Origin: Eledone cirrhosa | Lineage: Eukaryota | Assembly: GCA_964016885.1 (NCBI GenBank) | Contig: OZ024741.1 | Location: 320,974,001-321,038,000 of the forward strand | DNA length: 64,000 nucleotides | Reading direction: 5' to 3' | Shown here: positions 5,081-37,722 of the stretch, piece by piece | How the letters are laid out: each line of letters begins with the position of its first letter | Position numbering within the stretch: the first letter of the stretch is position 1 | The notes under the pieces: model-generated | What the model was told of the DNA's origin: nothing | Databases searched by the model: none | What the model saw: the letters and a program-made list of their open reading frames with translations, nothing else | Translations under genes and position numbers: made by a program

Positions 5081-5269
5081 ATATATATATATATATAACG
5101 AAGGAAATGTGATAAGGAACCAGATGGACCATAACGCACCAAAGTAATCAATGCTTAGGGTAGTAGAGTGGGTAATAGGAAAAAGTATGAGTCCAGTCCA
5201 GAATTAGCTGTCGAAACAGCTTGAGCTCTGCTGTCGGGGTCATACTTGTTCCTATATATATATATATAT

Positions 5270-5521
5270 AGTAATAATAATAAATTTGAAGACTAAAAAC
5301 CAAAGAGGGCTGGATAAGGATAAATATATATCAAATATATAAGAACCGTAGAGCAAATATTTATTAAAATAACAGATTAAAGTTTAAGCAAGGAATCGCT
5401 GCTTTCACCCTTAACGGGATCTTCTGAGAATATTTTCTCTACGGTTCTTATATATTTGATATATATTTATCCTTATCGAACCCTCTTTGGATTTTAGTCT
5501 TCAAATTTATTATTATTACTA
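5270..5521. mobile_element. Mini fold-back insertion of the PLE family C 3' end
   Basis: 5270-5427 matches 28993-29150; 5430-5521 is an inverted copy of 5270-5352. Flanked by (TA)n. Confidence 0.75.
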
Positions 5522-5530
5522 TATATATAT

Positions 5531-5797
5531 AGGAGGTGAGTTTTATTGTAGCACAATAAAGCAATGCAAATATCGGATAAGTAGCACTCAACAGTTTATT
5601 GGACTGGAGTATATATATGTTGATTAGACACTACCTTGCTCACAAGTGTATTTTTAAGTGTTTTTTTTTAACCTTCATATCATGTCTCCCTATTTCATCT
5701 GATGAGAACGCAAATATCGTCCCAGGATGATATTTGTTTTTGAAATGCGCATAATAAAATACATGGAACTTTTTTAACCATCTTTTAATTTCTTCTT
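5531..5797 (+). mobile_element. Short non-coding HHR-bearing element related to the 3' end of PLE 34273-37634
   Basis: Starts aggaggtgagt and ends aatttcttc(TA)n. Last about 170 nt resemble 37480-37634. Confidence 0.7.
5691..5761 (+). ncRNA. Type I HHR (family D)
   Basis: TATTTCAT-CTGATGA-[gaacgcaaatatcgtc..gatgatatttgttttt]-GAAA-TGCGCA-TA-ATAAAATA. Confidence 0.75.
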
Positions 5798-5939
5798 ATA
5801 TATATATATATATATATATATTGCACCATAGATGTAACTTTTTCCAAGTAAGAAAGTGAGGGTATTTTTGTCTACTGAATTTTATTAAAAGATTAAAGAC
5901 ATTATTTAAATATTCACTTCTTTAACATTTTCAAATGTC

Positions 5940-6130
5940 AACACTTCCGGTTATACGACATTCCTAACGTCTTCACGAACCAAAGTATCATCTTCCCGTT
6001 TTCTTTCGGTTGTAACGTTTTTCGAAATATTTACTTCTGAGTTCACAGATTGATTTTTTTTAGTTTCAGATATCCTGTTAAGGGTGAAAGCAGCGATTCT
6101 TTGCTTAAAATTTAATCTGTTATTTTAATA
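5940..6130 (+). mobile_element. Diverged copy of the PLE family C 3' end
   Basis: Reverse complement of 9196-9360. Includes a degenerate HHR variant at 6062-6111. Confidence 0.65.
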
Positions 6131-6196
6131 TATATATATATATAATTATATATTCGTGTACAAATATATATTTTTGCATACACAAAAACAAAATAT

Positions 6197-7386: not shown

Positions 7387-7420
<34 letters not shown>

Positions 7421-7610
7421 ACACTCACACACACATATATATATACACACAAACACACACACACATACACTATACTCACACACTGTTAACAAGACAATGC
7501 ATTCAATACAGACGTTTTATCTTCTGCCGGTCTCCTCTTATCATTTGTTAACCTTGGCGAAGCTGGATACCTCAGCTCGTATATATATATATATATATAT
7601 AACAAATAGT

Positions 7611-8030
7611 TAATCGAATATCATTATTAATATTCGAAAAACTCAGATTACATGTATTGTATTCAGCCATGTAAAGCGATAAACTTTTTGTGAGTTATTT
7701 GAATATGGCAAAGCCGGCCATTAATTGCTCGAAGACATAAAACTGACTGGCCTATCTGCTGATATGCAAATTTGGCTGATCGGGCGGTCTGTTAATATGC
7801 AGATCAGCTCGATCAGTCATTGTATATTTTAGAAAATATCATATATTTTCTCTAGCTCTGACAGTTGGCAGGTAAGCAATATACTGTACTGATGAAGGGT
7901 AATCACCAGGAAACATTAATGTTTGAAGTTCTGTTTACATGCCAACACAAGAGCAAGAATGACGGGGTCATAATAGCCAACGAATCGAATATCATTATAA
8001 ATATTAAAAAATCTCATATTACATTTATTA
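7611..8030 (+). mobile_element. HHR-containing non-coding unit, partial tandem (family E, diverged copy)
   Basis: Inverted homologue of 9552-10117. aatcgaatatcatt...attaca is repeated at 7612 and about 7983. Confidence 0.7.
7884..7928 (+). ncRNA. Type I HHR, degenerate (family E)
   Basis: CTGTA-CTGATGA-agggtaatcaccag-GAAA-CATTAATG-TT-TGAAG. Confidence 0.55.
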
Positions 8031-8034
8031 TATA

Positions 8035-8718
8035 CTAGCATTAAAGCCCGGCGTTGCTCGGGGTCAGGAAGTTATCAAAGTTAGGTTGCACCACCCATTT
8101 TATGGCAGCACTTTTTTGTCTGCCAGGCACTGGGTGAATGAATTGCAGACCTGGACTGCCGAAGCAGGAGCTGCGCCAGCAGTGACAATTGTAGTTTCGC
8201 CTATGGATATTATCTCTGTGCAAAGACGTGTTGAAATTTATTGTTTCACAGTACTTACGCAACACCCGCGTAGACGATGCCAGCCGAACAACAGAGCTGC
8301 GATGGAGTTGTTCTGCATGGTTGTCTAATGTGTGTTTTCTAAATTTAAGACAGTAGGGAGTGGTGTGATATGGGGGGCGAGTTAGCTGATGTTTCTAGCA
8401 GGTTTAGTGACCTCATAGAGGATATGTTTTCTAAATTTAAGACAGTAGGGAGGGGGGTGATATGGGGGAGAGTTAGCTGCTGTTTCTAGCAGGTTTAGTG
8501 ACCTCATAGAGGATATTATTGTGTGTAGTAAATGAACTGATACTTCTTTCTTCCACGTTCGTTGAGAGATGTTTTAAAACAGATTTATCGTTATTTTCTT
8601 TGTTGTTGAATAAATTTATCTGTTGCTTTTGAATAATTGTTGTTTCGTATGAAATGTAATAAGTTCTCTTTGTCATTGAAGTAAATAAATGTTTGACCGT
8701 TCCACACTCAAAAGCAAA

Positions 8719-8807
<89 letters not shown>

Positions 8808-9163
8808 TCACTCTCTTCTCTCTCTTCTTTCTTCGGCGTTCCTAAAGGAAGTTTGTAAGTTTAAGCGTATATAAGAGAAAGTTGCAGCATGTATGTAGTT
8901 TTATTGAATTTTAAGGGGAGTAGAGAGAGGAATCAGATTGTATTAGACGTGTAAAGCGTCATGTATTTAGTTTTATCGATTATTTCCGTAATTGTGGGTG
9001 AGTTTGAATGAAATAAATAGTCGTTGACCTAGGTTGAACCATTTACAACATTCTTACAGACTTTGAGTCGAATCGGTTTGAAATTGTGCAAATGTATAAA
9101 CATGGAACATGCACACACACACACACACAACAACAACAACAACAACAATCTGACTTCTATAGA
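8035..9163 (-). mobile_element. Non-autonomous Helitron
   Basis: On the minus strand it starts A|TCTATAG at 9163 and ends with the hairpin cccgagcaacgccggg, then ctttaatgCTAG|T at 8035. No TSD. Contains an internal about 92-bp tandem duplication (8331-8515) and (CT)n. Confidence 0.75.
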
Positions 9164-9168
9164 TAATG

Positions 9169-9195
<27 letters not shown>

Positions 9196-9200
<5 letters not shown>

Positions 9201-9530
9201 TAAAATAACAGATTAAAGTTTAAGCAAAGAATCGCTGCTTTCACCCTTAACGGGATCTTCTGAAACTAACAAAGTCAATCTGTAAACGCAGAACTGGATA
9301 TTTCAAAAAACGTTGCAACCGGAGGAAGACAGGAAGACGATACTTTGGTTCATGGTGACGTTCGCTGGCAAAGAACGGGAAAAAAAACGAATAATACGTC
9401 ATTAATAGGAGCGGTGAAAAACAATTACGTGCAAGGACAGAACCACGTTTATGGTATAAAAGAGGTCGTAGACTAATGTTCTCTAAGTGGTGCATAGAGA
9501 CGTTCTCTGGCAATGAACGAAAAAACGAAA
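9196..9530 (-). mobile_element. 3'-terminal fragment of PLE family C
   Basis: Near-identical to 29080-29420 and flanked by (TA)n. Confidence 0.75.
9217..9267 (-). ncRNA. HHR-like motif with non-canonical CAGAAGA core (family C)
   Basis: AGTTT-CAGAAGA-tCCC(gttaa)GGGt-GAAA-GCA(gcgattctt)TGC-TT-AAACT. Confidence 0.55.
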
Positions 9531-9551
9531 TATATATATATATATATATAT

Positions 9552-10115
9552 AAGAGAAAATTTCGCTCTACATGTCTGAACACAATAAATGTAATCTGAG
9601 TTTTTCGAATATTAATAATAACATTCGATTCGTTTGCAATTTTGCAAACAAGCCTCAATTTTATAGCCATGTCAGTAGAATGAACACTTCATTCTTGCTC
9701 TTGTGTTGGCATGCGAACAGAACTGCAGACACTAATGTTTCTGGATATCACCCTTCGTCAGTACAGCTCACTGTTCACCTGCCAAACTCTCAGAGCTAGT
9801 GAAAATATATGCTATTTTCAAAAATACACAGTGACTAATCGGCCTGATTTGCATATTAGCAGACTGGCTGATCAGTCAGATCTGCATATTAGCAGATTCA
9901 CTGATCAGTCAGATTTGCATATCAGCAGACTGGCCAGTCAGTTTCCTGTATACGAGCGATAAATGGCCGGCTTTGCCAAATTCAAATAAAAAAGAGAAAA
10001 TTTCGCTCTACATGGCTGAATACAATAAATGTAATCTGAGTTTTTCGAATATTAATAATAACATTCGATTAGTTTGCAATTTTGCAAACAAGCCTCAATT
10101 TTATAGCCATGTCAG

Positions 10116-10117
<2 letters not shown>
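9552..10117 (-). mobile_element. Retrozyme-like 440-nt HHR unit present as about 1.3 copies (family E)
   Basis: About 126-bp direct repeat at 9552-9678 and 9992-10117, with one HHR in between. (TA)n on both sides. Confidence 0.7.
9723..9766 (-). ncRNA. Type I HHR (family E)
   Basis: CTGTA-CTGACGA-aGGGT(gat)ATCCa-GAAA-CATTAGTG-TC-TGCAG, with a GUC cleavage triplet. Confidence 0.7.
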
Positions 10118-10160
<43 letters not shown>

Positions 10161-10545
10161 ATACATACGTGATAATAGCAAACAAAATTTTAGCATATAT
10201 TGCAGACTAATATAATGCATTACTTACACCCGTTTTCAGAGGTCACAGATCGCACTTCTCTATTAAGTTATATACTTTAGGAATTTGTGAATTAACTTTA
10301 AAATAAATTATATTACACATTATAATTACATATGGTCTATGTATCTCTCACTTATTATAGAAAACTGTGTTACCAGTAACACCAGTGACAGCCATTCAAA
10401 CATCATAAAGTAGATATTATATGTGTGTCTACTATTTTAGCTGTTAGAATTTGTTTCCATAACATAGTTGGTCGTTTAGTGTGGTAAGTTAATCTACATA
10501 TGTCCAACACAATCACATTTCCTAAACACACATATATATATACAT

Positions 10546-10986: not shown

Positions 10987-11057
10987 TATATCAGTCAGCT
11001 GCTACAATCTGTTCAGTGTTGTTTATTTCGAACAGATTGTAGCAGCTGACTGATATA
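10987..11057. repeat. Perfect 28-bp inverted repeat with 15-nt loop
   Basis: tatatcagtcagctgctacaatctgttc / gaacagattgtagcagctgactgatata. Confidence 0.9.
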
Positions 11058-11352
11058 TAAGCTGTATATTGTAAGCTAGGTATATTATTCGTGTTCAAAA
11101 TTGAAAACATCCTCTGATAATATATGTTTTTCTCTAACTGCAGACAATAACGGAGCATATTCGTTATCACTCATCCTACAAGAAATAGCACTCGAATCTC
11201 TCATAAAACACACCCTGTTTTATTAAAATGTAAATAAGGTGGAGCCAATTGGCTATTATATTTGTACATACACCGGGATTGAATCGATCGGATGGTCCGA
11301 TTGAGGGGACTTTGACAATAGGAATACTCTGCGAAGACTGAGCTACAGTTAA

Positions 11353-11516
11353 ATAATGGTTTCTAGTATAGGCACAAGGCCAGTAATTTGGGGGAAGGGA
11401 AAGTCGATTAAATCAACCCCAGTACGTTACTGGTGCTTTATTTTATCGACCCCGTAAGGATGAAAGGCAAAGTTAACCGCGGCGGGATTTGAACTCAGAC
11501 TGTAAAGGACCGTAAT
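11353..11516 (-). mobile_element. tRNA-derived SINE (5'-truncated)
   Basis: B-box gagttcaaatcccgcc and the gcctttcatccttacggggtcgataaaata core, shared with 31848-32052. Confidence 0.85.
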
Positions 11517-15820: not shown

Positions 15821-16358
<538 letters not shown>

Positions 16359-17604: not shown

Positions 17605-17662
<58 letters not shown>

Positions 17663-17664
<2 letters not shown>

Positions 17665-17855
17665 AGATCAGAAGATGGTTAAAAGAGTTCCAAGTATTTT
17701 ATTATGCGCATTTCAAAAACAAATATCATCATGGGATGATATCTGCGTTCTCATCAGATAAAATAGGGATACATGATATGAAGCTTAAAAAACACTTGTG
17801 AATAGTGAAGTTTTAAATCAACATATAAATAAAACATATAATAAAACTCACCTCC

Positions 17856-17892: not shown

Positions 17893-17938
<46 letters not shown>

Positions 17939-17942
<4 letters not shown>

Positions 17943-18138
17943 ATAATAATAAATTTGAAGACTAAAATCCAAAGAGGGCTCAATAAGGATAAATATATAT
18001 CAAATATATAAGAACCCTAGAGCAAATATTTATTAAAATAACAGATTAAAGTTTAAGCAAAGAATCGCTGCTTTCACCCTTAACGGGATCTTCTGAAACT
18101 AACCAGCGATTCTTCGCTTAAATTTTAATGTTATTTTA

Positions 18139-23871: not shown

Positions 23872-23927
<56 letters not shown>

Positions 23928-24085
23928 ATACTTTGGGAGGGTCATGTTGCCAATAAGAAACACACGCACCAGTTGCTTTCACTTCAATTTATTATATATT
24001 TATAAATTTATAAATTTACAAATCTACAAACTTATAAATTTCTGGTTGGTTGGTTGGTTCCACAACCAGATAGTTGTTTATATAT

Positions 24086-24130
24086 AGTCATAGTCCTTTC
24101 GTCACACACTCTGTGACCTCTTCAGTGACT
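24086..24130 (-). ncRNA. Minimal type I HHR in PLE 3' UTR (family I)
   Basis: AGTCA-CTGAAGA-g-GTCACA(gagtg)TGTGAC-GAAA-GGAC-TA-TGACT. Confidence 0.75.
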
Positions 24131-24334
24131 GGGGATTCCTTTCTTTGTTTCTGTGCCTTTCCTTTCTTCTGTCCTACGCCATTTTGTTTCTGTGTGTGTG
24201 TTGTGTGCTCAGTTTGCGCATGCGCCACATCCGGGTGTCTGTGTGTGTTTGTGTTCATTTATCTATTTGTTTATTTATTTACATGTTGTTGGTTGGTTGT
24301 TTGTTCTATGTGTGTGTGTGTTTTCATTTTGTCC

Positions 24335-27300
24335 TTAATTGTAAGTTGTGATGTTGCTGTTCCACTCATATTTTCTATTTAATTTTGGTTGTAATTCTTT
24401 TATGCTTACTGCCTCTGTAATTTGCCTAAACATTGCATCTTTTCTGTGTGTGGATTCTATTTTTATTTCTATGTTCTCTAATTTACCCTTGTGTTCTATC
24501 TTAGCATGTTGGTAGAGTACAGATGATTCTTTATTATCTTGAAGGTCTCGCCAGTGTTCATTTATTCGTTCCCCTATACTACGAGCTGTCTCACCTATGT
24601 ACACTATATTTTTGTTTCTACATTGTCCTTCAGTACATCTTATGCTATACACTACATTTCTAGTTTTACAGTTAATATGGGGGCTTATTTTACAGGTTAT
24701 ACATTTCTTATCTATACATGAGGGTCTTTGGAACGGGTATGTCTTGCTAATAAGTGTTTTTACGGAGGTACCTGGTCTTTCTACTATCTTAATATTGAGT
24801 TTATGTTTATTTAGGGCCCTTCTAAATTTGTAGGCTAGTTCGCCTCTAGGGGTTGTATTGATGAACATTACACTCTGGTATTTATTGCTATCATACCATG
24901 AGTTTATTCTATTGGCCTTGTTCCTAGTTCTTTCTATTCTATTCCAAAATTTGCTCCTATACAAGGGGCAGGTCCCATTTATGTCATTATTTACCATTTT
25001 TTCCCATTTGGTTCTGGCTTCTCTATACACTCTGATTCTATCTCTCTGATTGTAGCCAGAGAACTGCATACGGTGGATGAAGTGTTGTATGTGTCTCTCT
25101 AGTTCTTCGGGGTTGCACATGCGGGACACATTTCTCATCACCCGTACCAAATCCGCAATCAGTATGTTGATTTTGGTATGGTCCGAAATGGCCGAGTTTC
25201 GGTGGATCAGATGTTTGGAAGTCATGGGTTTGGCATAATGGGAATGAAGGATTTGTTTTGGTTGTTAATGGTATCTAACCAGAGCTCTGTGTCTAGTACA
25301 GGTAATCGATGGTTGGGGTGTCTACTTGGGTAGTCTATAGTAACTCTAATGCTCTGGTGGATGGAGTTTGCTATTTGCTGGATGCTTTCCATTGTGTTTT
25401 TCTCTAGTTCCTGACTGTTCTTTAGTGGGGGTGTCTTAACTACGATGTTTATATCATCTACGTAGCGGGAGTACATTATCAGGGTTAAGCTGTCTTCTAA
25501 TTGTTCTTTAAGTTTTTGTTTAAGTCTACTGTCCCACCATACCATGAATAAGTTAGCTATGTCGCCTGCAATGCTAACACCAATGGCTGCTCCTTCCTCT
25601 TGGCCATATGTTTTTCCATTAAATTTGAACATATGTTCCTTAAGGGTTAATTTTATGCTGGCCCCTACCGCATGTGCAATCATTTTCTTCAGTTCATCGT
25701 GGTTTTCGGGTGTCCGTATGGCTCTGGTCCACCCGTTCCATCTATCTGTGTGGGTTTTCTTGGCCATTGAGGTAATGGTAGGTGGTCTGCCTCTTGCTGG
25801 TCTTGTAGGGCACAGGTTGCTAAGGTCATAAGTGTCTAGGTAACTATTACTATGGGTAAGCTTAAGTAGAAGTCCCAGCTCACTGGTATCAATCCCACGG
25901 AACTCAACCTTGCTCTCGCTGATCATTTCTACGCATTTCTCCACAGCAAAATCCACGTCAATAGATGGATACAGGGACACAACATCCATACTGCCTATTA
26001 TGCAGTTTGTTAGGTCCCCAGATCGGTTACTCACGCCGATTCTGCTGAGGAGGTCCTCCGTGCTGTCACATGCATCTGGGGACATCTCAATGATGGGGCG
26101 TATGATCAGGGAGAAGAAGTAGGACAGTCTGTAGTTACTAGCAATGTTAGTTCCACAGACTGGCCGTGTTGGTGGTCCCGCGACAGGGTCACAGCCCGTT
26201 TTATGTTCTTTTCGAAGCCCATACAACGCCGGCACGTCATTGTTCCAGGCCTGGAAATTGTTGGCAGTCCTTTTGTTGGGCTGCATTATATTCGTCCACA
26301 TCACCATATGGGCATTGAGGGCTTTTTCTCTATCCTCATGCTCCTGTGGTGTTACCTCTCTTGTGTTAGTGATGTGGGGTTGCATTGCCTGGATGTAGTT
26401 TGGCAGGCTGTCAACCGACATTCTGCCAGACTTGTCTGTTGGAAAGCATGCTATCTCTCCGCGAGCGCTGCATGAGCTTACGCAAGCCATTTGCAGATTT
26501 TTCTCCCAGTTGCTGGGCCTCTATTCTATTATGCTTCTTGCTATACTATTCTATAATATTTCTAAGTTCGGATTTAGCTATACTAAATTGTGCTTCTGTT
26601 TGTTCATCGACCTGCGACGGCAACTGCGTGCGTTTGTTAAATGGTAAAGTCGTGGCGTGGACTCGTCGCAGGTCGAATGATTTATCGGAGGGATTATAAA
26701 ACGGAGAGTTCCAGGCTGCTGCTTTATGTGTACTAGTGCTATTGTTATTGTTAGTTGTGTTGTTTCTATTTCTATTTCCACCAACAGCCTCATGGTTGTT
26801 TCTATGTCTCTCATAATTACTCCTGTCTCTTTCCACTGGCTCAATGTTGTTATCTACCCTATTTTGTGTGTCTGTGTGTTCGTCTTGGTTATTCTCTTTG
26901 TTCTTAGTCTCCCATCTCCTTTTCCTTTTAATCTTATTACTTTCCCTTATTTCTCTGATTTCTGTGCTACTGTCATTACTTGTTTTCTGTGTCTGTGTGT
27001 TTGTTAAGATTGTGGTGGTGGTGAGAGGCATTGAATGCGTGTGTGTTGTTGTTGTTGATGTGTGCTGTTGTTGATGTGTGCTGTTGTTGTCTCCGTGTGT
27101 GTTATCGTTGTTGTGTGTGTTGTTATTGTTGTTTGTGTCTGCGTGTCTGTTGTTGTTGTTTCTGGGTATGTTGCTATTGTTGTTGTTGATGTGTGTGTTG
27201 TTGTTATTGTTGTTTGTGTCTGTGTGTCTGTTGTTGTTGGGATGTGTGTTGTATATGTGTGTGCGTATATTGTTGCTTTTGTTTTTGATGCTCCAGCGTA

Positions 27301-27868
27301 GTTTTGTAAATGCTTTTTCTATTTCAGACAGACAACTAATCATATTTACCTTCTTGAATGTCGCAAATTCCGGCGGCAGACATAACACAGACATTTCATC
27401 ATTATCTATTTTTGCGTTCCCACAAATGTTGGTGTTTTTGTTGTCGAACTCTTCTGATAATGAGGTATCGGCCATTTTGATACCGTCAATTTTGTCGGGA
27501 TATCTATTGGTATACTCTATAGTATCCTGATTTAGCTTTGCCTGTTTAAGCCACTTTAGTTTCCTGTTAAAGTGCTTATCACATTCTTGAGTAATGTACT
27601 GTTCTTCGGGGCGTATAAGGCTTATAAATATTAGTTTCTCTGTTGGTGTGGTGATTCTAGCTATTTCTTGTATTAGGTTACGCTTTTGTTTTTCTTGATG
27701 ATTTAATTCTCTATAGATCTTCTTTTTTATGTTTAGAATTAAAGTTCGTTTTAGCCTATCTGCTTGTTTTTTGGTGAGTTGTAATCTTCTAACGTCGGTA
27801 TTGATGGCGCACAGCTTTATGAAGGATAGTTGTCGAGATGTTATGGTTTTTCGTAGACAACAGAACAT
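24335..27868 (-). pseudogene. PLE polyprotein (N-terminus, RT, Zn-finger linker, GIY-YIG), frameshifted
   Basis: RPVCG, GSMDVVSLYPSID, GAAIG, YSRYVDD, LPVLD; then CxxC..NCKTRNVVYSIRC..YIGETARSIGERINEH. Confidence 0.9.
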
Positions 27869-27880
27869 GGGACCTGCCCC

Positions 27881-28510
27881 TTGTATAGGAGCAAATTTTG
27901 GAATAGAATAGAAAGAACTAGGAACAAGGCCAATAGAATAAACTCATGGTACGATAGCAATAAATACCAGAGTGTAATGTTCATCAATACAACCCCTAGA
28001 GGCGAACTAGCCTACAAATTTAGAAGGGCCCTAAATAAACATAAACTCAATATTAAGATAGTAGAAAGACCAGGTACCTCCGTAAAAACACTTATTAGCA
28101 AGACATACCCGTTCCAAAGACCCTCATGTATAGATAAGAAATGTATAACCTGTAAAATAATCCCCCATATTAACTGTAAAACTAGAAATGTAGTGCATAG
28201 CATAAGATGTACTGAAGGAAAATGTAGAAACAAAAATATAGTGTACATAGGTGAGACAGCTCGTAGTATAGGGGAACTAATAAATGAACACTGGCGAGAC
28301 CTTCAAGATAATAAAGAATCATCTGTACTCTACCAACATGCTAAGATAGAACACAAGGGTAAATTAGAGAACATAGAAATAAAAATAGAATCCACACACA
28401 GAAAAGATGCAATGTTTAGGCAAATTACAGAGGCAGTAAGCATAAAAGAATTACAACCAAAATTAAATAGAAAATATGAGTGGAACAGCAACATCACAAC
28501 TTACAATTAA
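27881..28510 (+). pseudogene. Inverted duplicate of the PLE GIY-YIG domain
   Basis: Near-identical to the C-terminal part of ORF 24335..25225. Confidence 0.9.
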
Positions 28511-28714
28511 GGACAAAATGAAAACACACACACACATAGAACAAACAACCAACCAACAACATGTAAATAAATAAACAAATAGATAAATGAACACAAACAC
28601 ACACAGACACCCGGATGTGGCGCATGCGCAAACTGAGCACACAACACACACACAGAAACAAAATGGCGTAGGACAGAAGAAAGGAAAGGCACAGAAACAG
28701 AGAAAGGAATCCCC

Positions 28715-28759
28715 AGTCACTGAAGAGGTCACAGAGTGTGTGACGAAAGGACTATAACT
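28715..28759 (+). ncRNA. Minimal type I HHR (family I, inverted copy, one stem I mismatch)
   Basis: AGTCA-CTGAAGA...GAAA-GGAC-TA-TAACT. Confidence 0.65.
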
Positions 28760-29104
28760 ATATATAAACAACTATCTGGTTGTGGAACCAACCAACCAAC
28801 CAGAAATTTATAAGTTTGTAGATTTGTAAATTTATAAATTTATAAATATATAATAAATTGAAGTGAAAGCAACTGGTGCGTGTGTTTCTTATTGGCAACA
28901 TGACCCTCCCAAAGTATAACAATATCGGTTTCAACACACGATTTCAGATAAAGAATCTTGCTAAACAAATTCAGAAACGAAATATATATATATAGTAATA
29001 ATAATAAATTTGAAGACTAAAATCCAAAGAGGGCTCGATAAGGATAAATATATATCAAAGATATAAGAACCGTAGAGCAAATATTTATTAAAATAACAGA
29101 TTAA

Positions 29105-29155
29105 AGTTTAAGCAAAAAATCGCTGCTTTCACCCTTAACGGGATCTTCTGAAACT
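29105..29155 (-). ncRNA. HHR-like motif with CAGAAGA core (family C)
   Basis: Same fold as 9217-9267. Confidence 0.55.
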
Positions 29156-29699
29156 AACAAAGTCAATCTGTAAACGCAGAAGTGGAAATTTCAAAAAACG
29201 TCGCAACCGGAGGAAGACAGGAAGACGATACTTTGGTTCGTGGAAACGTTCCCTGGCAAAGAACGGGAAAAAACGAATATAATACGTCATTAATAGGAGC
29301 GGTGAAAAACAATTACGCGCAAAGACAGAACCACGTTTATGGTATAAAAGAGGTCGTAGACAAATGTTCTCTTAGGTGGTTCATAGAGACGTTCTCTGGC
29401 AATGAACGAAAAAAACGAAGATAATACGTCATATATGGAGTGTGGAGAACAATTGCACGCAAAGATAAAACCACGTAAATGGTATAGCAGAAGTCGTAGA
29501 CTAAAATTCTAACTAAGAGACCGAATGAATCTCCGCTTCAGAGTTAAGAACAAAGTAAATAAATACAATACAGAGGTAATAGAAATTAAATAAATACATA
29601 CACGCATACAAATAAGTACATACACAAGCATACGCGAAAACACCATAGGTATACAAAACCACGCACATATAAATATGTGTGTGTATGCGTGTATACAAA

Positions 29700-29730
<31 letters not shown>

Positions 29731-31847
29731 ACGTATATAAATAAATAAATACGTATATAACAAGCGCACACACATACCTACATGTAAAACACAAATGTTC
29801 GGAGACGTAAGTCAACCAAAACATGAAGTACACATATACACATACCCTACATACGTACGAACCTGCATACTCACACAGACGCAAAACTCCCGTATACACA
29901 TAACCAAACCATATGTACCAGAATGTATAAAAATATACGCCATAACATATACAATCAAATATACGTACGAGAAGGTATACGTACCTTCACAAAACATACA
30001 GGTAATATATACTTACCTATGCAAATAAGTAATGGTATAAACAAAACATATACTTAGCTACCACATCAAGACGTAAAATATTCACGTATAGATCGTACTA
30101 TCCGTTAGGGTATAACGTGGGGCTGTAATACAGGAAAGTTTTGTGCAATTTATGTTTACAAGCCGAAATTGCCTCAGATTTTTGTTTAAGATGTGGTCTG
30201 TGGCGTAGAGTATTTCCAGGGCCTCAGCGGCGCAGAGGTCACAAGGTCTTTTATTTCCGTTATACGATCTAGCCCTAGCTAGGATCTCCCAGTGTAACTT
30301 ATATTGGGTGTGGTTGTCTTTTAGACTCCAGATATAAGCTGAAAGTGACGTCATATTCCTTCTTAGAGGGTAACGAAAAGAATGGGTATGCATGTAAAGA
30401 CGCTGCTTGAATCTATTGGCGGTTAACCCTATGTAGGCCCTACGGGACGTGGGTGTTTCAACCTTACATTTGTAGACAATGTTACTAGAGAGGCATTTCC
30501 CGGATAGGGGGCAATCAACCCGATTCCTACAATTACAGTTAGTACTAACTACGGGGTTGCACGTGTTCCTACGGCTAGGTAGTTGAGCTAAATTTGAAGC
30601 TGTGATGTTATGTGCAAGGTTAGGTAGGAGTCGTAGAGTAAGAAATTTTAATAGTATTTCTATTAAAAATTTAACTATATTTATGTGTAGGGGGAAAATA
30701 CTTCGTAATAAGGGAAAGAAAGATCTTAGCTAATGGTGTGGCCACCTCCATATTATATGCTGGGTTATACCAACAAATGCGACGGGATCTATTTATTCTA
30801 GGTCTATTTTCGTACTCTGTATATGTTACCTTATCGACAAATCCACTTCGAGCCAGAGCTTCATTGTAATAAGTGGAATGGTCGTTGAAAATATGCTCGT
30901 TAGTAGATAGATGGGAAAGCCTCAAAGAAACGTTTCTTACCAGGTTCTTGATTATGCTGGCAGGATGGTTGGAATGCTTACTTATGTAATTAAGCGTATC
31001 ATTCGGCTTTCTATACGGGTAATACAACCCATTCAATAAATTGAGGGTAACGTCGAGGTAATTAACGACCGAGAGATTGGCCTCAACCTGTATAGAGAGG
31101 TTGAAGCCTTTAAAGAAGGCTGTGAGTTCTTTTCTGAATCTGTCTCAAGCACGAGGTCCGCACTTAGTCATGGTCAAAAGACCATCATCACGGTTCAAAC
31201 CACCGCCCGCGTTGGGTAATTCGTCCTTGATAGAGAAAAGAAGGAAAAGGCCGATCAGATCAGTAACCTCCGCAGAATCGCAGGCGCCCATACTCACGTC
31301 GAATGGGGTACTATTGGATTTTTTAATCCAAATAGAGTCGTCGAAATTAATCACCGACTTACGGGCATTGAGGATGACATCAACTTCGAAATCCTTAACC
31401 ACTGTGAGTGTTTTAGCGAAATTGATAGCTCTAAGGAGAAGTGGTAAAGTGATGGAGGAGTAGTAATTGTTGATGTCGAATTGGATAAAACAGCAATGTT
31501 CCTTGTTACATATGCCGTTGAAGCAATCAATCACCGCGAAAGAATTGTTCCACAGTGCAAGAGGGGCCAAACTTCTAATTTCAGGTATAATTCTATCAAG
31601 AAATGTTTTACTAAGTCTACCTAAATCGGACTTCGTAGGGTTAATAAGCCGAATAGAGGGGTTGTTCGGAAAATTGGATTTGTGATCCTTCAGGGTAAAG
31701 TGGGGAGAAGTAGGGTCCAGAGGTTCGGTCCGGTCCAGGATGTTGAGATCAGATGTGATTTTAAACCCAGCATCGTTGATTTCATTGATGACGCACCGAT
31801 TAGTTTTACGGTAATCCTTAGTTACAGCATTATGTAGTAGTTGATGT

Positions 31848-32052
31848 AGGGCGGTGGATTGGCAGGGCGGTGGATTGGCAGTATCGGTAGAGGGTCGGAC
31901 GCCATGCTTTCCAGCATAGTTACGTCCCTTTACGATCTGAGTTCAAATCCCGCCGAGGTTGACTTTGCCTTTCATCCTTACGGGGTCGATAAAATAAAGT
32001 ACCAGTAATGCACTGGGTAATTGCTGGCCTTGTGCCAAAAGTAGAAACAATT
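31848..32052 (+). mobile_element. Full-length tRNA-derived SINE inserted in the PLE ORF, with 18-bp TSD
   Basis: A-box-like tggcagtatcggtagagg and B box gagttcaaatccc. TSD attatgtagtagttgatg at 31829-31846 and 32050-32067. Central core resembles the Meta-type SINE domain (from memory). Confidence 0.9.
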
Positions 32053-32769
32053 ATGTAGTAGTTGATGGTAAGTACTGCGCTCCACTTGATATAGGTTGCC
32101 AGTTTTGTCGGAATGGACGTGCACGGCATTAGAATCCTTAATAGAACGAATGCTATTCTTCAGGTCCTGCTGGAAGGAATTGCTCCTATTCCGAAATTTG
32201 ATACTCCGTATGAGTTCCAAGACATCATTTTCGAAGGGTAGCAATGCTGGATTACACGGGGGGTTATTATAGGTTTTAAACCCAAAGTTGTCTGCTTTTC
32301 GCGGATTATCGAAATAAAAGGCACGCCAACGCAACCTTTTATGCATACATACATACATATAGACAGACAGACTGACATACATACATACATACATACATAC
32401 ATACATACATACATACATACATACATACATACATACATACATACATACATACATACATACATACGTATTCACCGTGTTACAGAAACTGCACTTGGGGAAA
32501 TTGTAAAGTACGACAACTAATATACTCTGTGCTTCAACCCTTACGGATTATCGGACAATTTTTCACAATCTAATACTACGCTTTCTTCATAGACAAAAAT
32601 GGTTGTCGGTGTTCTAACTGAGATCAAATCATAGTTAAAAGTATGGGGGTGATTAATTATCACTAACGATGTATAGAGATATAGGGATTCTGAGGTAGAT
32701 GTGACGTGATCCCAGCTTAGAATACCCACTGCAAGGCTTATGTGTATTTATTACAGCATATTACATATG

Positions 32770-34224: not shown

Positions 34225-34275
<51 letters not shown>

Positions 34276-34310
34276 GAAGAAATTAAAAGATGGTTAAAAA
34301 AAGTTCCAAA

Positions 34311-34380
34311 TATTTTATTATGCGCATTTCGAAAACAACATCATCCTGGGACAAAAATTGTGTCCTCATCAGATAAAATA
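34311..34380 (-). ncRNA. Type I HHR (family D)
   Basis: TATTTTAT-CTGATGA-ggacac..tgttttc-GAAA-TGCGCA-TA-ATAAAATA. Confidence 0.8.
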
Positions 34381-35950
34381 AGGTAACATGATATGAGGCC
34401 TAAAAACACTTGTCAACAGGGAAGTGTCCAGTCTACATATGACAAAAATATAAGAGTAAGAGAAAAATAGGAAAAATGAAGAAAAGGAAAGAAGAAGGAA
34501 AAATGAAAACGAAATAAAAGAGAGAAAAAAGAAAGAAAGAAGAAGGAGAGAGAAAGAGAAAGAGGGAGAGACTTTTGATCAGGAACTCTGTCAAAATGAA
34601 AAACAGCTGTAAATAACGGCTAAGAAAAAAAAGATTGATGAGGTGTATGTGCGAATATTACAGATGGTATTCAAATATTAGAGGTCAGGAATATAGAAAC
34701 TGGGTATAATATTATATTGGGTTTAAATACTAAAAATTGGATTAAGAAGTGTAAAAATGTATTAATAAAATAAAATAAAATAAATTTAAATTAAATTAAA
34801 ATAATTATAAAAAAAGGTTTTTCAAATAAAATAAAATAAAATAACATAAAATAAGATAGAATAGTATTAAAAAATAAAAATAAGAATAGTCTATCTATAT
34901 CAAAATTAAAAATTAGTATTAGAAATCTATATATGTGGTGTACTATTTAATTATTATTTTATATCAACAAGTAAATAAAGGAAATTGCAGAAAGGTTTAT
35001 AAACGTAGAAAGACATATGACGTCATAGTTTGTTTACAAAATCTACGAAGGTTTGCACGAAAATGTAAGGCTATAGAGAAAAAAGGTGAAAGGCTTAAAA
35101 TATGCTGAGAAAACTGAATTAATACATTGTAGAATATAATGAAATATGTGTGAAAAAATGTGTGGAAAATATATATATGTGTAAAAAATTAACCGTTATT
35201 CATGGAATATGTTATAGAACATTATCTATATACTTTGTGAAAGGTCTTGAAAGATTTATGATTACAAAGAGCAAATAAATATGTACGTCTATTTATTAAA
35301 GAGTTGAAATTCGAAATAATGGTAAATTTTTCAGCTAGACATAAATTACAAACCCTAGATATGGAAGCATTGGAGTATGGAGAAGCGTTGCAAATTTTAC
35401 GCAAGAAATTTCGTAATTACCGGCCTATATTACCCATACAATAAGGATAATGAGAACCTAAATTACGTTAACTTTAAATCAAACCACCCTAATAATGTTA
35501 AAAATGCTATAGTCAGAAGTGTTGAAAAAAGAATTTCTAATTTATCCTTTAATAAAGATATCTTCGATGCTAATGCCAACTATTATAATAACGCGTTATC
35601 TAGGGCTAGATATCCAGGCAAAATTAGATACACTAAGGAAATTAATCTTGGCAGAACTTATAGTAATGTAGCTAGTAATAATCATACCAGTAACAAAAGG
35701 AGGAGACCTAGATATAAAAATATCCTTTGGTACAACGCTCCCTTCTCTCTTTCCTTTATTAATAATATCCCTAAATTATTTTTTCGGGCTTTAGATAACA
35801 GCTTCCCCCTTCACATATATAAAGCAAGATTTTCAATAAGCATACCATTAAATTCTCATATTCCACTACTTCCAACATTTCTAAAATTATCTCAAGACAT
35901 AATTCTAAAATAGTAAATAATAACTCATATGCATCCAACCATGAGAGTCA

Positions 35951-37362: not shown

Positions 37363-37527
37363 TTCTCTCCTCCTTCTTTCTTTCTTTTTCCTCTCTTCTA
37401 TTTCTTTTTCCTTCTTCTTTCCTTTTCTTCGTTTTTCGTATTTTTCTCTTACTCTTATATTTTTGTCATTTGTAGATTGGACACTTTCCTGTTCACAAGT
37501 GCTTTTAGGCCTCATATCATGTTACCT

Positions 37528-37597
37528 TATTTTATCTGATGAGAACACAATTTTTGTCCCAGGATGATGTTGTTTTCGAAATGCGCATAATAAAATA
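37528..37597 (+). ncRNA. Type I HHR (family D)
   Basis: TATTTTAT-CTGATGA-gaacac..tgttttc-GAAA-TGCGCA-TA-ATAAAATA. Confidence 0.8.
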
Positions 37598-37722
37598 TAT
37601 GGAACTTTTTTAACCATCTTTTAATTTCTTCTTTTTTATATATACTCGAGTTCTACCACTGTTGAGTGCTACTTATCAGATATATGCATAGTTTTATTGT
37701 ACTACAATATTACTCACCTCCT

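Follow-up and report, generated by a model that had tools for sequence, protein, structure and literature searches.

The DNA analyzed here, hereafter the window, is a 64-kb stretch (64,000 nt from Eledone cirrhosa) of microsatellite-rich animal sequence. Within it are found two copies of a short, non-coding repeat, which are described here as copies A and B. They lie on opposite strands and are separated by other insertions. The features that are relevant to an appreciation of these copies are as follows, where cut+n refers to a position n nucleotides past the site of ribozyme cleavage.

7579..7611, no strand: (TA)11 plus about 10 nt of further sequence, at the 5' junction of copy A
7612..8029, (+): copy A, from a second subfamily with a 371-nt unit, of which it contains 1.13; its 3' end agrees to within 1 nt with the common end of the family
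7889..7930, (+): decayed hammerhead of copy A, with core at 7889 and cut position at 7923
8035..9168, (-): insert from outside of the family, which we take to be Helitron-like, with 5' TC, 3' CTAG and a subterminal hairpin, found between an adenine and a thymine
9530..9552, no strand: (AT)n at the 3' junction of copy B
9552..10117, (-), this being the ribozyme sense: copy B, comprising 1.29 units, with the unit non-coding and 440 nt long
9552..9584, (-): 32-33-nt extension of copy B past the common 3' end, likely an optional tail of PLE type
9552..9677, (-): 3' terminal repeat of copy B, 97.6% identical to the 5' terminal repeat over 126 nt
9585, (-): common 3' end of the family at cut+143, with its image at 10025, joined to (AT)n; putative start of reverse transcription
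9605..9628, (-): predicted hairpin of 10 bp, kept in the 5' repeat of copy A, with the common end 20 nt downstream of it; candidate enzyme-binding site
9707..9785, (-): type I hammerhead motif of copy B, with core CUGACGA at 9761-9755, GAAA at 9741-9738, GUC, and the cut after 9728
9834..9942, (-): internal quasi-palindromic repeats of 33 nt, three here but variable in number within the family, with a long rod as their predicted fold
9992..10117, (-): 5' terminal repeat (pseudo-LTR) of copy B, beginning from cut+51 of the unit
10118..10152, no strand: (AT)17 at the 5' junction of copy B

An earlier note on this DNA had described B as approximately 1.3 units with a period of 440 nt, and A as approximately 1.1 units with a period of about 370 nt on the opposite strand, and the extents given above bear out both descriptions. 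The terminal repeat of A is only 47 nt (41 of 47 positions identical by hand count), and what seemed to be its extension to 8047 is instead a chance match to the Helitron-like end. Upon alignment, A and B are identical at 353 of 415 ungapped columns (85%). There are in addition 75 gap columns, 33 of which correspond to one internal repeat unit and 38 to an indel near the 5' start of B, with this 38-nt gap in A beginning 2 nt before B's start. A 5' start that is shared by A and B was considered as well, and among the 17 of 903 loose-end rows listed there is no AT-joined 5' pile-up. Internal repeats of about 30 nt and of varying copy number, as also claimed, are indeed present, i.e., as 33-nt units of which B possesses three and A two, and in one public library (X15, introduced below) there are two places at which reads jump over precisely 33 nt (911 and 114 reads). 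The absence of a meaningful reading frame holds too, with the longest ATG-initiated frames being of 46 aa (A) and 83 aa (B), and with a 126-aa stop-to-stop frame at 9835 giving no Pfam match. GC content is 0.36 for the 440-nt unit and 0.34 for the 371-nt unit.

The claim of one hammerhead ribozyme per copy stands for B, which has an intact motif, but for A what is present is only a decayed one. The B hammerhead consists of a long, interrupted helix I, a helix II of 4 bp on an A.A mismatch, and a helix III of 3 bp. Its scan score of 16 is reached in 0 of 60 shuffles of the window and in 0 of 2000 shuffles of B, while the predicted hammerhead fold lies 3.3 kcal/mol above the local minimum. The A motif has a G.A mismatch in helix I along with a GUU triplet and scores 7, a level met in 12 of 60 shuffles; with its own score at chance level, it is by homology to B that this hammerhead is recognized. 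Rfam gives no gathering-level match in the 64-kb window and no hammerhead at E up to 10 within 7400-10300, and its microRNA matches in the window are (AT)n artefacts. Ten hammerhead-like motifs are seen over the window as a whole, those of A and B among them. Seven of the eight others sit 30-182 nt upstream of a microsatellite of at least 5 units, including those at 348, 10703, 19332 and 61140, of which 19332 has the top scan score. For the eighth, at 37536, a short run of AT is reached at about +48.

Flanks rich in (TA), another feature of the earlier description, are found on both sides of B and on the 5' side of A, but at the 3' side of A there are just 5 nt of AT, next to the insert at 8035-9168. 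Excision of those 1134 nt in silico restores a single (AT)n tract at A's 3' end; the insert, that is, splits a microsatellite, and the shortness of the flank is due to this. The designation of the insert as Helitron-like follows the usual end rules of Helitrons. It is non-coding, with an internal 91-nt tandem (8333-8516) and (TC)52. Also between A and B is a member of a dispersed family, at 9193-9529, so that four insertions share one TA-rich site. That family is seen again at 29081-29517 (94% alike over 341 nt), abuts (AT)n, and contains a 140-nt partial tandem the length of which differs between its two copies, with related pieces at 5253-5531, 5966-6153 and 17922-18102. A short repeat at 11352-11499, presumably SINE-like, has at least 8 relatives in the window (e.g., 15644, 22722, 31936, 35990, 37842, 52606). 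Long palindromes occur at 15821-16327, 5259-5531 and 10987-11057, the first possessing 217-nt arms around an (AT)n core.

In the coordinates of B, copy B ends at cut+51 and +176 and copy A at +97 and about +143. All four ends thus lie within one 126-nt stretch of the 440-nt unit, with the repeat of A nested inside that of B. This is relevant to the interpretation offered by the earlier note, in which A and B were differently permuted, independent reverse transcripts of a circular RNA that had been read more than once around. Independent retrotransposition from a template of more than one unit survives from that interpretation, with copies that are 85% alike each found in (TA)n and each exceeding one unit. 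So too does the statement that the ends of the copies differ. Free permutation does not, and as a label for A and B 'differently permuted' is misleading.

Ends of the family more generally were mapped using contigs or reads from 4 of 17 listed public runs (X1, X4, X6 and X15) on 9470-10230, with B as reference, B's own ends falling inside the repeat-masked zone of that mapping. X15 is a RAD-seq library, in which only some loci are amplified and read. The family is abundant, as seen with 10,163 contigs in X1 and 47,873 of the 12.47 million reads of X15, and family contigs are present also under two other organism labels (35 and 3, the latter being X6). Loose ends that are joined to AT are concentrated at a single site of the unit: 45 X1 contigs at 9585 and 33 at the image 10025, among the 17 of 903 loose-end rows listed. 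By hand calculation, an even spread of the 1180 partly mapped X1 contigs over 440 positions would instead give about 2.7 per position, versus the 78 seen. X15 supplies 710 reads with an AT-joined end at 9585, with depth going from 1738 at 9600 to 304 at 9581. X4, which carries another organism label, supplies one contig with an AT-joined end at 10025, plus one whose loose end, at 10000, is rich in AT. Among the 3 contigs mapped from X6, none ends at the common site. The preferred internal 3' end at cut+143 is found therefore in three of the four runs as well as in copy A. A second AT-joined site is located 5 nt on, at 10020 (27 X1 contigs, again among the 17 of 903 rows listed).

Various other sites were set aside. 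The sharp begin and end sites in X15 at 9710, 9713, 9638, 9641, 9657, 9982, 9999 and 10081 are GCATGC or AATT restriction sites, and the loose ends at 9638 and 9657 were not retained as biology either. Joints at 9668/9669 that appear to go back are on a CATG and likely are ligation chimeras. At 9744 and 9785 the loose ends are not those of the element but correspond to sequence of the A-type subfamily. With regard to 5' inversions, which like 5' truncation are frequent in PLEs, joints of opposite strand in X15 have 1-2 starts each, several of them at enzyme sites.

If a circular RNA were primed at arbitrary points then freely permuted copies should result. A and B do differ at both ends while both exceed one unit, as arbitrary priming would have it, and the end sites are known from 17 of the 903 loose-end rows, which leaves some room for it. 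With TA-joined ends at one site along with its neighbor 5 nt off in three runs, however, with A ending there, and with the four ends of A and B confined to so small a portion of the unit, arbitrary priming has been largely refuted by the end mapping and we consider it very improbable. The 3' end, that is, is fixed, by the AT-joined pile-up at 9585/10025 in X1, X4 and X15, and fixed ends were what the earlier note itself had named as contradicting its interpretation. In place of the permutation claim there likely is a fixed 3' end with a tail-sized variant, the latter as seen with B, which extends 32-33 nt past the common end; this tail class consists of one copy, and its end is in the masked zone. 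Approximately 200-300 X15 reads run on past 9585 as well, and these could be either tails or longer tandems. At the other, 5' end, X1 summed depth as folded on the unit declines from about 699k beside the common end through 568k, 426k and 288k to 182k-157k and then 68k upstream, returning to 233k in the last bin. Since X1 contig depth does not measure the number of copies, varies with similarity to B, and near the end is increased through the duplicated termini, the fit of this gradient with 5' truncation is suggestive only.

PLEs are known for partial tandems with pseudo-LTRs, for tails, and for (TA)n targets, with (TA)n targeting described for Neptune, Hydra and Naiad (PMC8557442). The Poseidon element of Anolis, the only PLE studied in vitro, begins reverse transcription at two internal positions in its RNA, both of them past the ribozyme cut, as primed by nicked, AT-rich DNA; the 30-40 nt between these two starts are an optional genomic tail (PMC11167929). 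The A/B family resembles PLEs (Poseidon of Anolis, PMC11167929; Neptune and Hydra, PMC8557442) in its partial tandems with pseudo-LTR, its (TA)n targets and its apparent 5' fall-off. The resemblance extends to a preferred internal end, to a ribozyme situated roughly 100-170 nt before the 3' end, and, as judged from B, to what may be an optional extension of about 30-40 nt. It differs from them in possessing no reading frame, in being 0.4-0.6 kb in length, in having no homology to PLE ends in the window, and, for B, in a hammerhead that is not of the minimal form, its helix I being long and its helix III a real one. From these considerations the family very probably is a PLE-type, non-autonomous element with a fixed internal start.

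With animal non-LTR retrozymes the A/B family shares a type I hammerhead, absence of coding, a unit that is in the range of 150-450 bp, has a GC content below 50% and occurs in indel variants, and a predicted self-paired circle (PMC7229834). Unlike these, its two loci here are of 1.1-1.3 units with one ribozyme rather than dimers or multimers, and it is known here from DNA alone. Nor is a fixed, TA-joined end known to be part of the description of retrozymes in PMC7229834. The element class is already known, with the A/B family a test case rather than a new kind of system, one that likely works as would an animal non-LTR retrozyme moved by a PLE, its membership among retrozymes being incomplete. 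Retrozyme repeats are described in a 2020 review as being without a motif that would identify a helper (PMC7761336). A 2026 preprint considers retrozymes to be non-autonomous derivatives of PLEs, an argument made there from homology and from co-occurrence in vertebrates, with the mechanism being called unresolved (bioRxiv 10.64898/2026.07.22.740005). Other short, non-coding elements with pseudo-LTRs or tandem units that are thought to be moved by PLEs are MRC1 of Chlamydomonas (PMC8557442) and Xenopus retrozymes (bioRxiv 10.64898/2026.07.22.740005). Many of these share sequence with an autonomous partner; for the A/B family none was found in 64 kb.

That is, no likeness of sequence was seen to 11 PLE-end, ribozyme or neighboring-repeat regions of the 64-kb window, and no partner PLE is identified there. 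Coding PLE frames are present within the window, with both Hydra-type (DKT, CxCX5C) and Neptune/Nematis-type (CX4CxxC, YIG) motifs. As Pfam supplies a weak RVT_1 match for just one of seven frames, these clade names rest on motifs. One coding PLE, at 23920-28925, has an RT, a CX4CxxC linker, a YIG motif and a 1059-nt inverted terminal copy. One of its ends joins (TA)n at cut+168, and at the other there are about 56 extra nucleotides found nowhere else in the window, possibly its own tail. Broken frames at 30082-32547 (-) contain DKT and CxCX5C motifs that match the Hydra clade as described in PMC8557442. Pattern scans of metagenome contigs, prokaryote genomes and viral contigs gave no matches.

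Could A and B simply be 5'-truncated terminal fragments, i.e., pseudo-LTRs, of a coding PLE, or a local satellite derived from one, and therefore not separately mobile? The geometry from ribozyme to end is like that of the coding PLE at 23920-28925, with its end at cut+168, and such an origin is discussed for retrozymes by Li et al. (bioRxiv 10.64898/2026.07.22.740005). In A, in B, and in X1 contigs 6-8 across 10025, however, what is found upstream of the unit is the unit again and not a reading frame, and two subfamilies that are 85% alike keep the same closed unit. An origin as PLE fragments thus seems improbable.

There remains the question of template. Copies of more than one unit would call for a template that is continuous across an uncut or re-ligated ribozyme, and, with one ribozyme each, neither A nor B could free a unit-length RNA by self-cleavage. 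Circular RNA intermediates were proposed in 2014 for PLEs (PMC4209133) and in 2020 for animal retrozymes (PMC7229834, Cervera and de la Pena 2020), with mussel retrozymes of 350-390 nt being circular in vivo (PMC7229834). As a circle, the B unit has a predicted fold of -139.9 kcal/mol in which the cut is closed by helix I (z -6.6, 0 of 60 shuffles), and the A unit also is predicted to fold well (z -5.2, 0 of 60 shuffles). As the antisense circle of B likewise gives a strong predicted fold (z -5.4), these scores come partly from the palindromic repeats. The two terminal repeats of B share a minority allele, T at 9642 and 10082, where more than 90% of X1 depth is adenine, though a dimer master having this allele as a trait of its subfamily could explain that as well. 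Considering the predicted circular fold, the circularity in vivo of mussel elements of the same size, and B's shared rare allele, a circle would appear to be the likelier source of copies exceeding one unit. A fixed start is compatible with a circular template, and two copies cannot show a circle.

A linear multimer or a template jump would fit nearly as well, given that for the anole PLE ribozyme cleavage is dispensable in vitro and the main template is unprocessed RNA (PMC11167929), which favors a linear template. The element and its fixed internal start would be the same but there would be no circle, with copying instead from a linear transcript that stays uncut and comes from a locus of partial-tandem or multimer form, or by a jump between two linear RNAs, the transcript arising from an internal promoter or via read-through. 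Penelope does have an internal promoter (PMC2377424), each copy in the window has but one ribozyme, and every end-mapping observation is consistent with such a template. On the other hand, the 3-bp helix III of B resembles invertebrate motifs reported as cleaving as monomers (PMC7229834, PMC7761336), so that a linear transcript would tend to be cut. The related mollusc elements, furthermore, are mostly circular in vivo (PMC7229834), and the 5' repeat presumably would erode with each generation unless reset by a promoter. Though fitting in many ways, a linear template is viewed here as less likely than not. Given a PLE-type element with a fixed internal start, a circular template is moderately probable, and for the whole, i.e., an abundant, non-coding, one-hammerhead repeat that is a PLE passenger and is copied from a circular, unit-length RNA, we lean slightly in favor.

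The process that is envisaged would begin with a source locus of at least two ribozymes, which is transcribed, with the RNA self-cleaved and ligated into a circle of about 370-440 nt. A PLE protein would then bind near the 9605-9628 hairpin and nick a (TA)n tract. Reverse transcription would be primed internally at cut+143, sometimes at +148 or +176, and the enzyme would copy backwards through the ribozyme to a variable stop, mostly early. Sometimes, though, it would pass its own start, thereby giving rise to 1.1-1.3 units, a pseudo-LTR and a single ribozyme. A and B, from this perspective, would be end products, unable to release unit RNA themselves. Among the mapped runs there is no record spanning two ribozymes and no listed piece over the whole stretch, the contigs being too short for two. 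A more specific version, a retrozyme circle equipped with a PLE-type start signal (the hairpin, the fixed start at cut+143, and an optional 32-nt tail), is a tentative possibility. A variant at 9622 changes a G-U to an A-U pair within the hairpin.

Were there such a start signal on a circle, then a single, abundant family would connect the circles of retrozymes directly with target-primed reverse transcription by PLEs at (TA)n, with roll-over by the enzyme as the source of PLE partial tandems. As to the enzyme by which animal retrozymes are mobilized, a fixed, TA-joined end along with a variant the size of a tail serves as a mechanistic fingerprint of initiation by a PLE. Being compact and of high copy, the 440-nt element is in addition a suitable substrate for distinguishing circle from linear-multimer origins of PLE partial tandems. 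The literature, as distinct from Repbase and Dfam, in which the family may already be catalogued, yielded no account of the 440-nt A/B family, nor of any retrozyme whose end is fixed.

A second hammerhead family, with a palindromic helix III, is present in the window at 5665-5821, 17635-17792, 34248-34406 and 37503-37644. Its copies stop at a run of AT, approximately 40-48 nt beyond the cut, which is another fixed 3' end.
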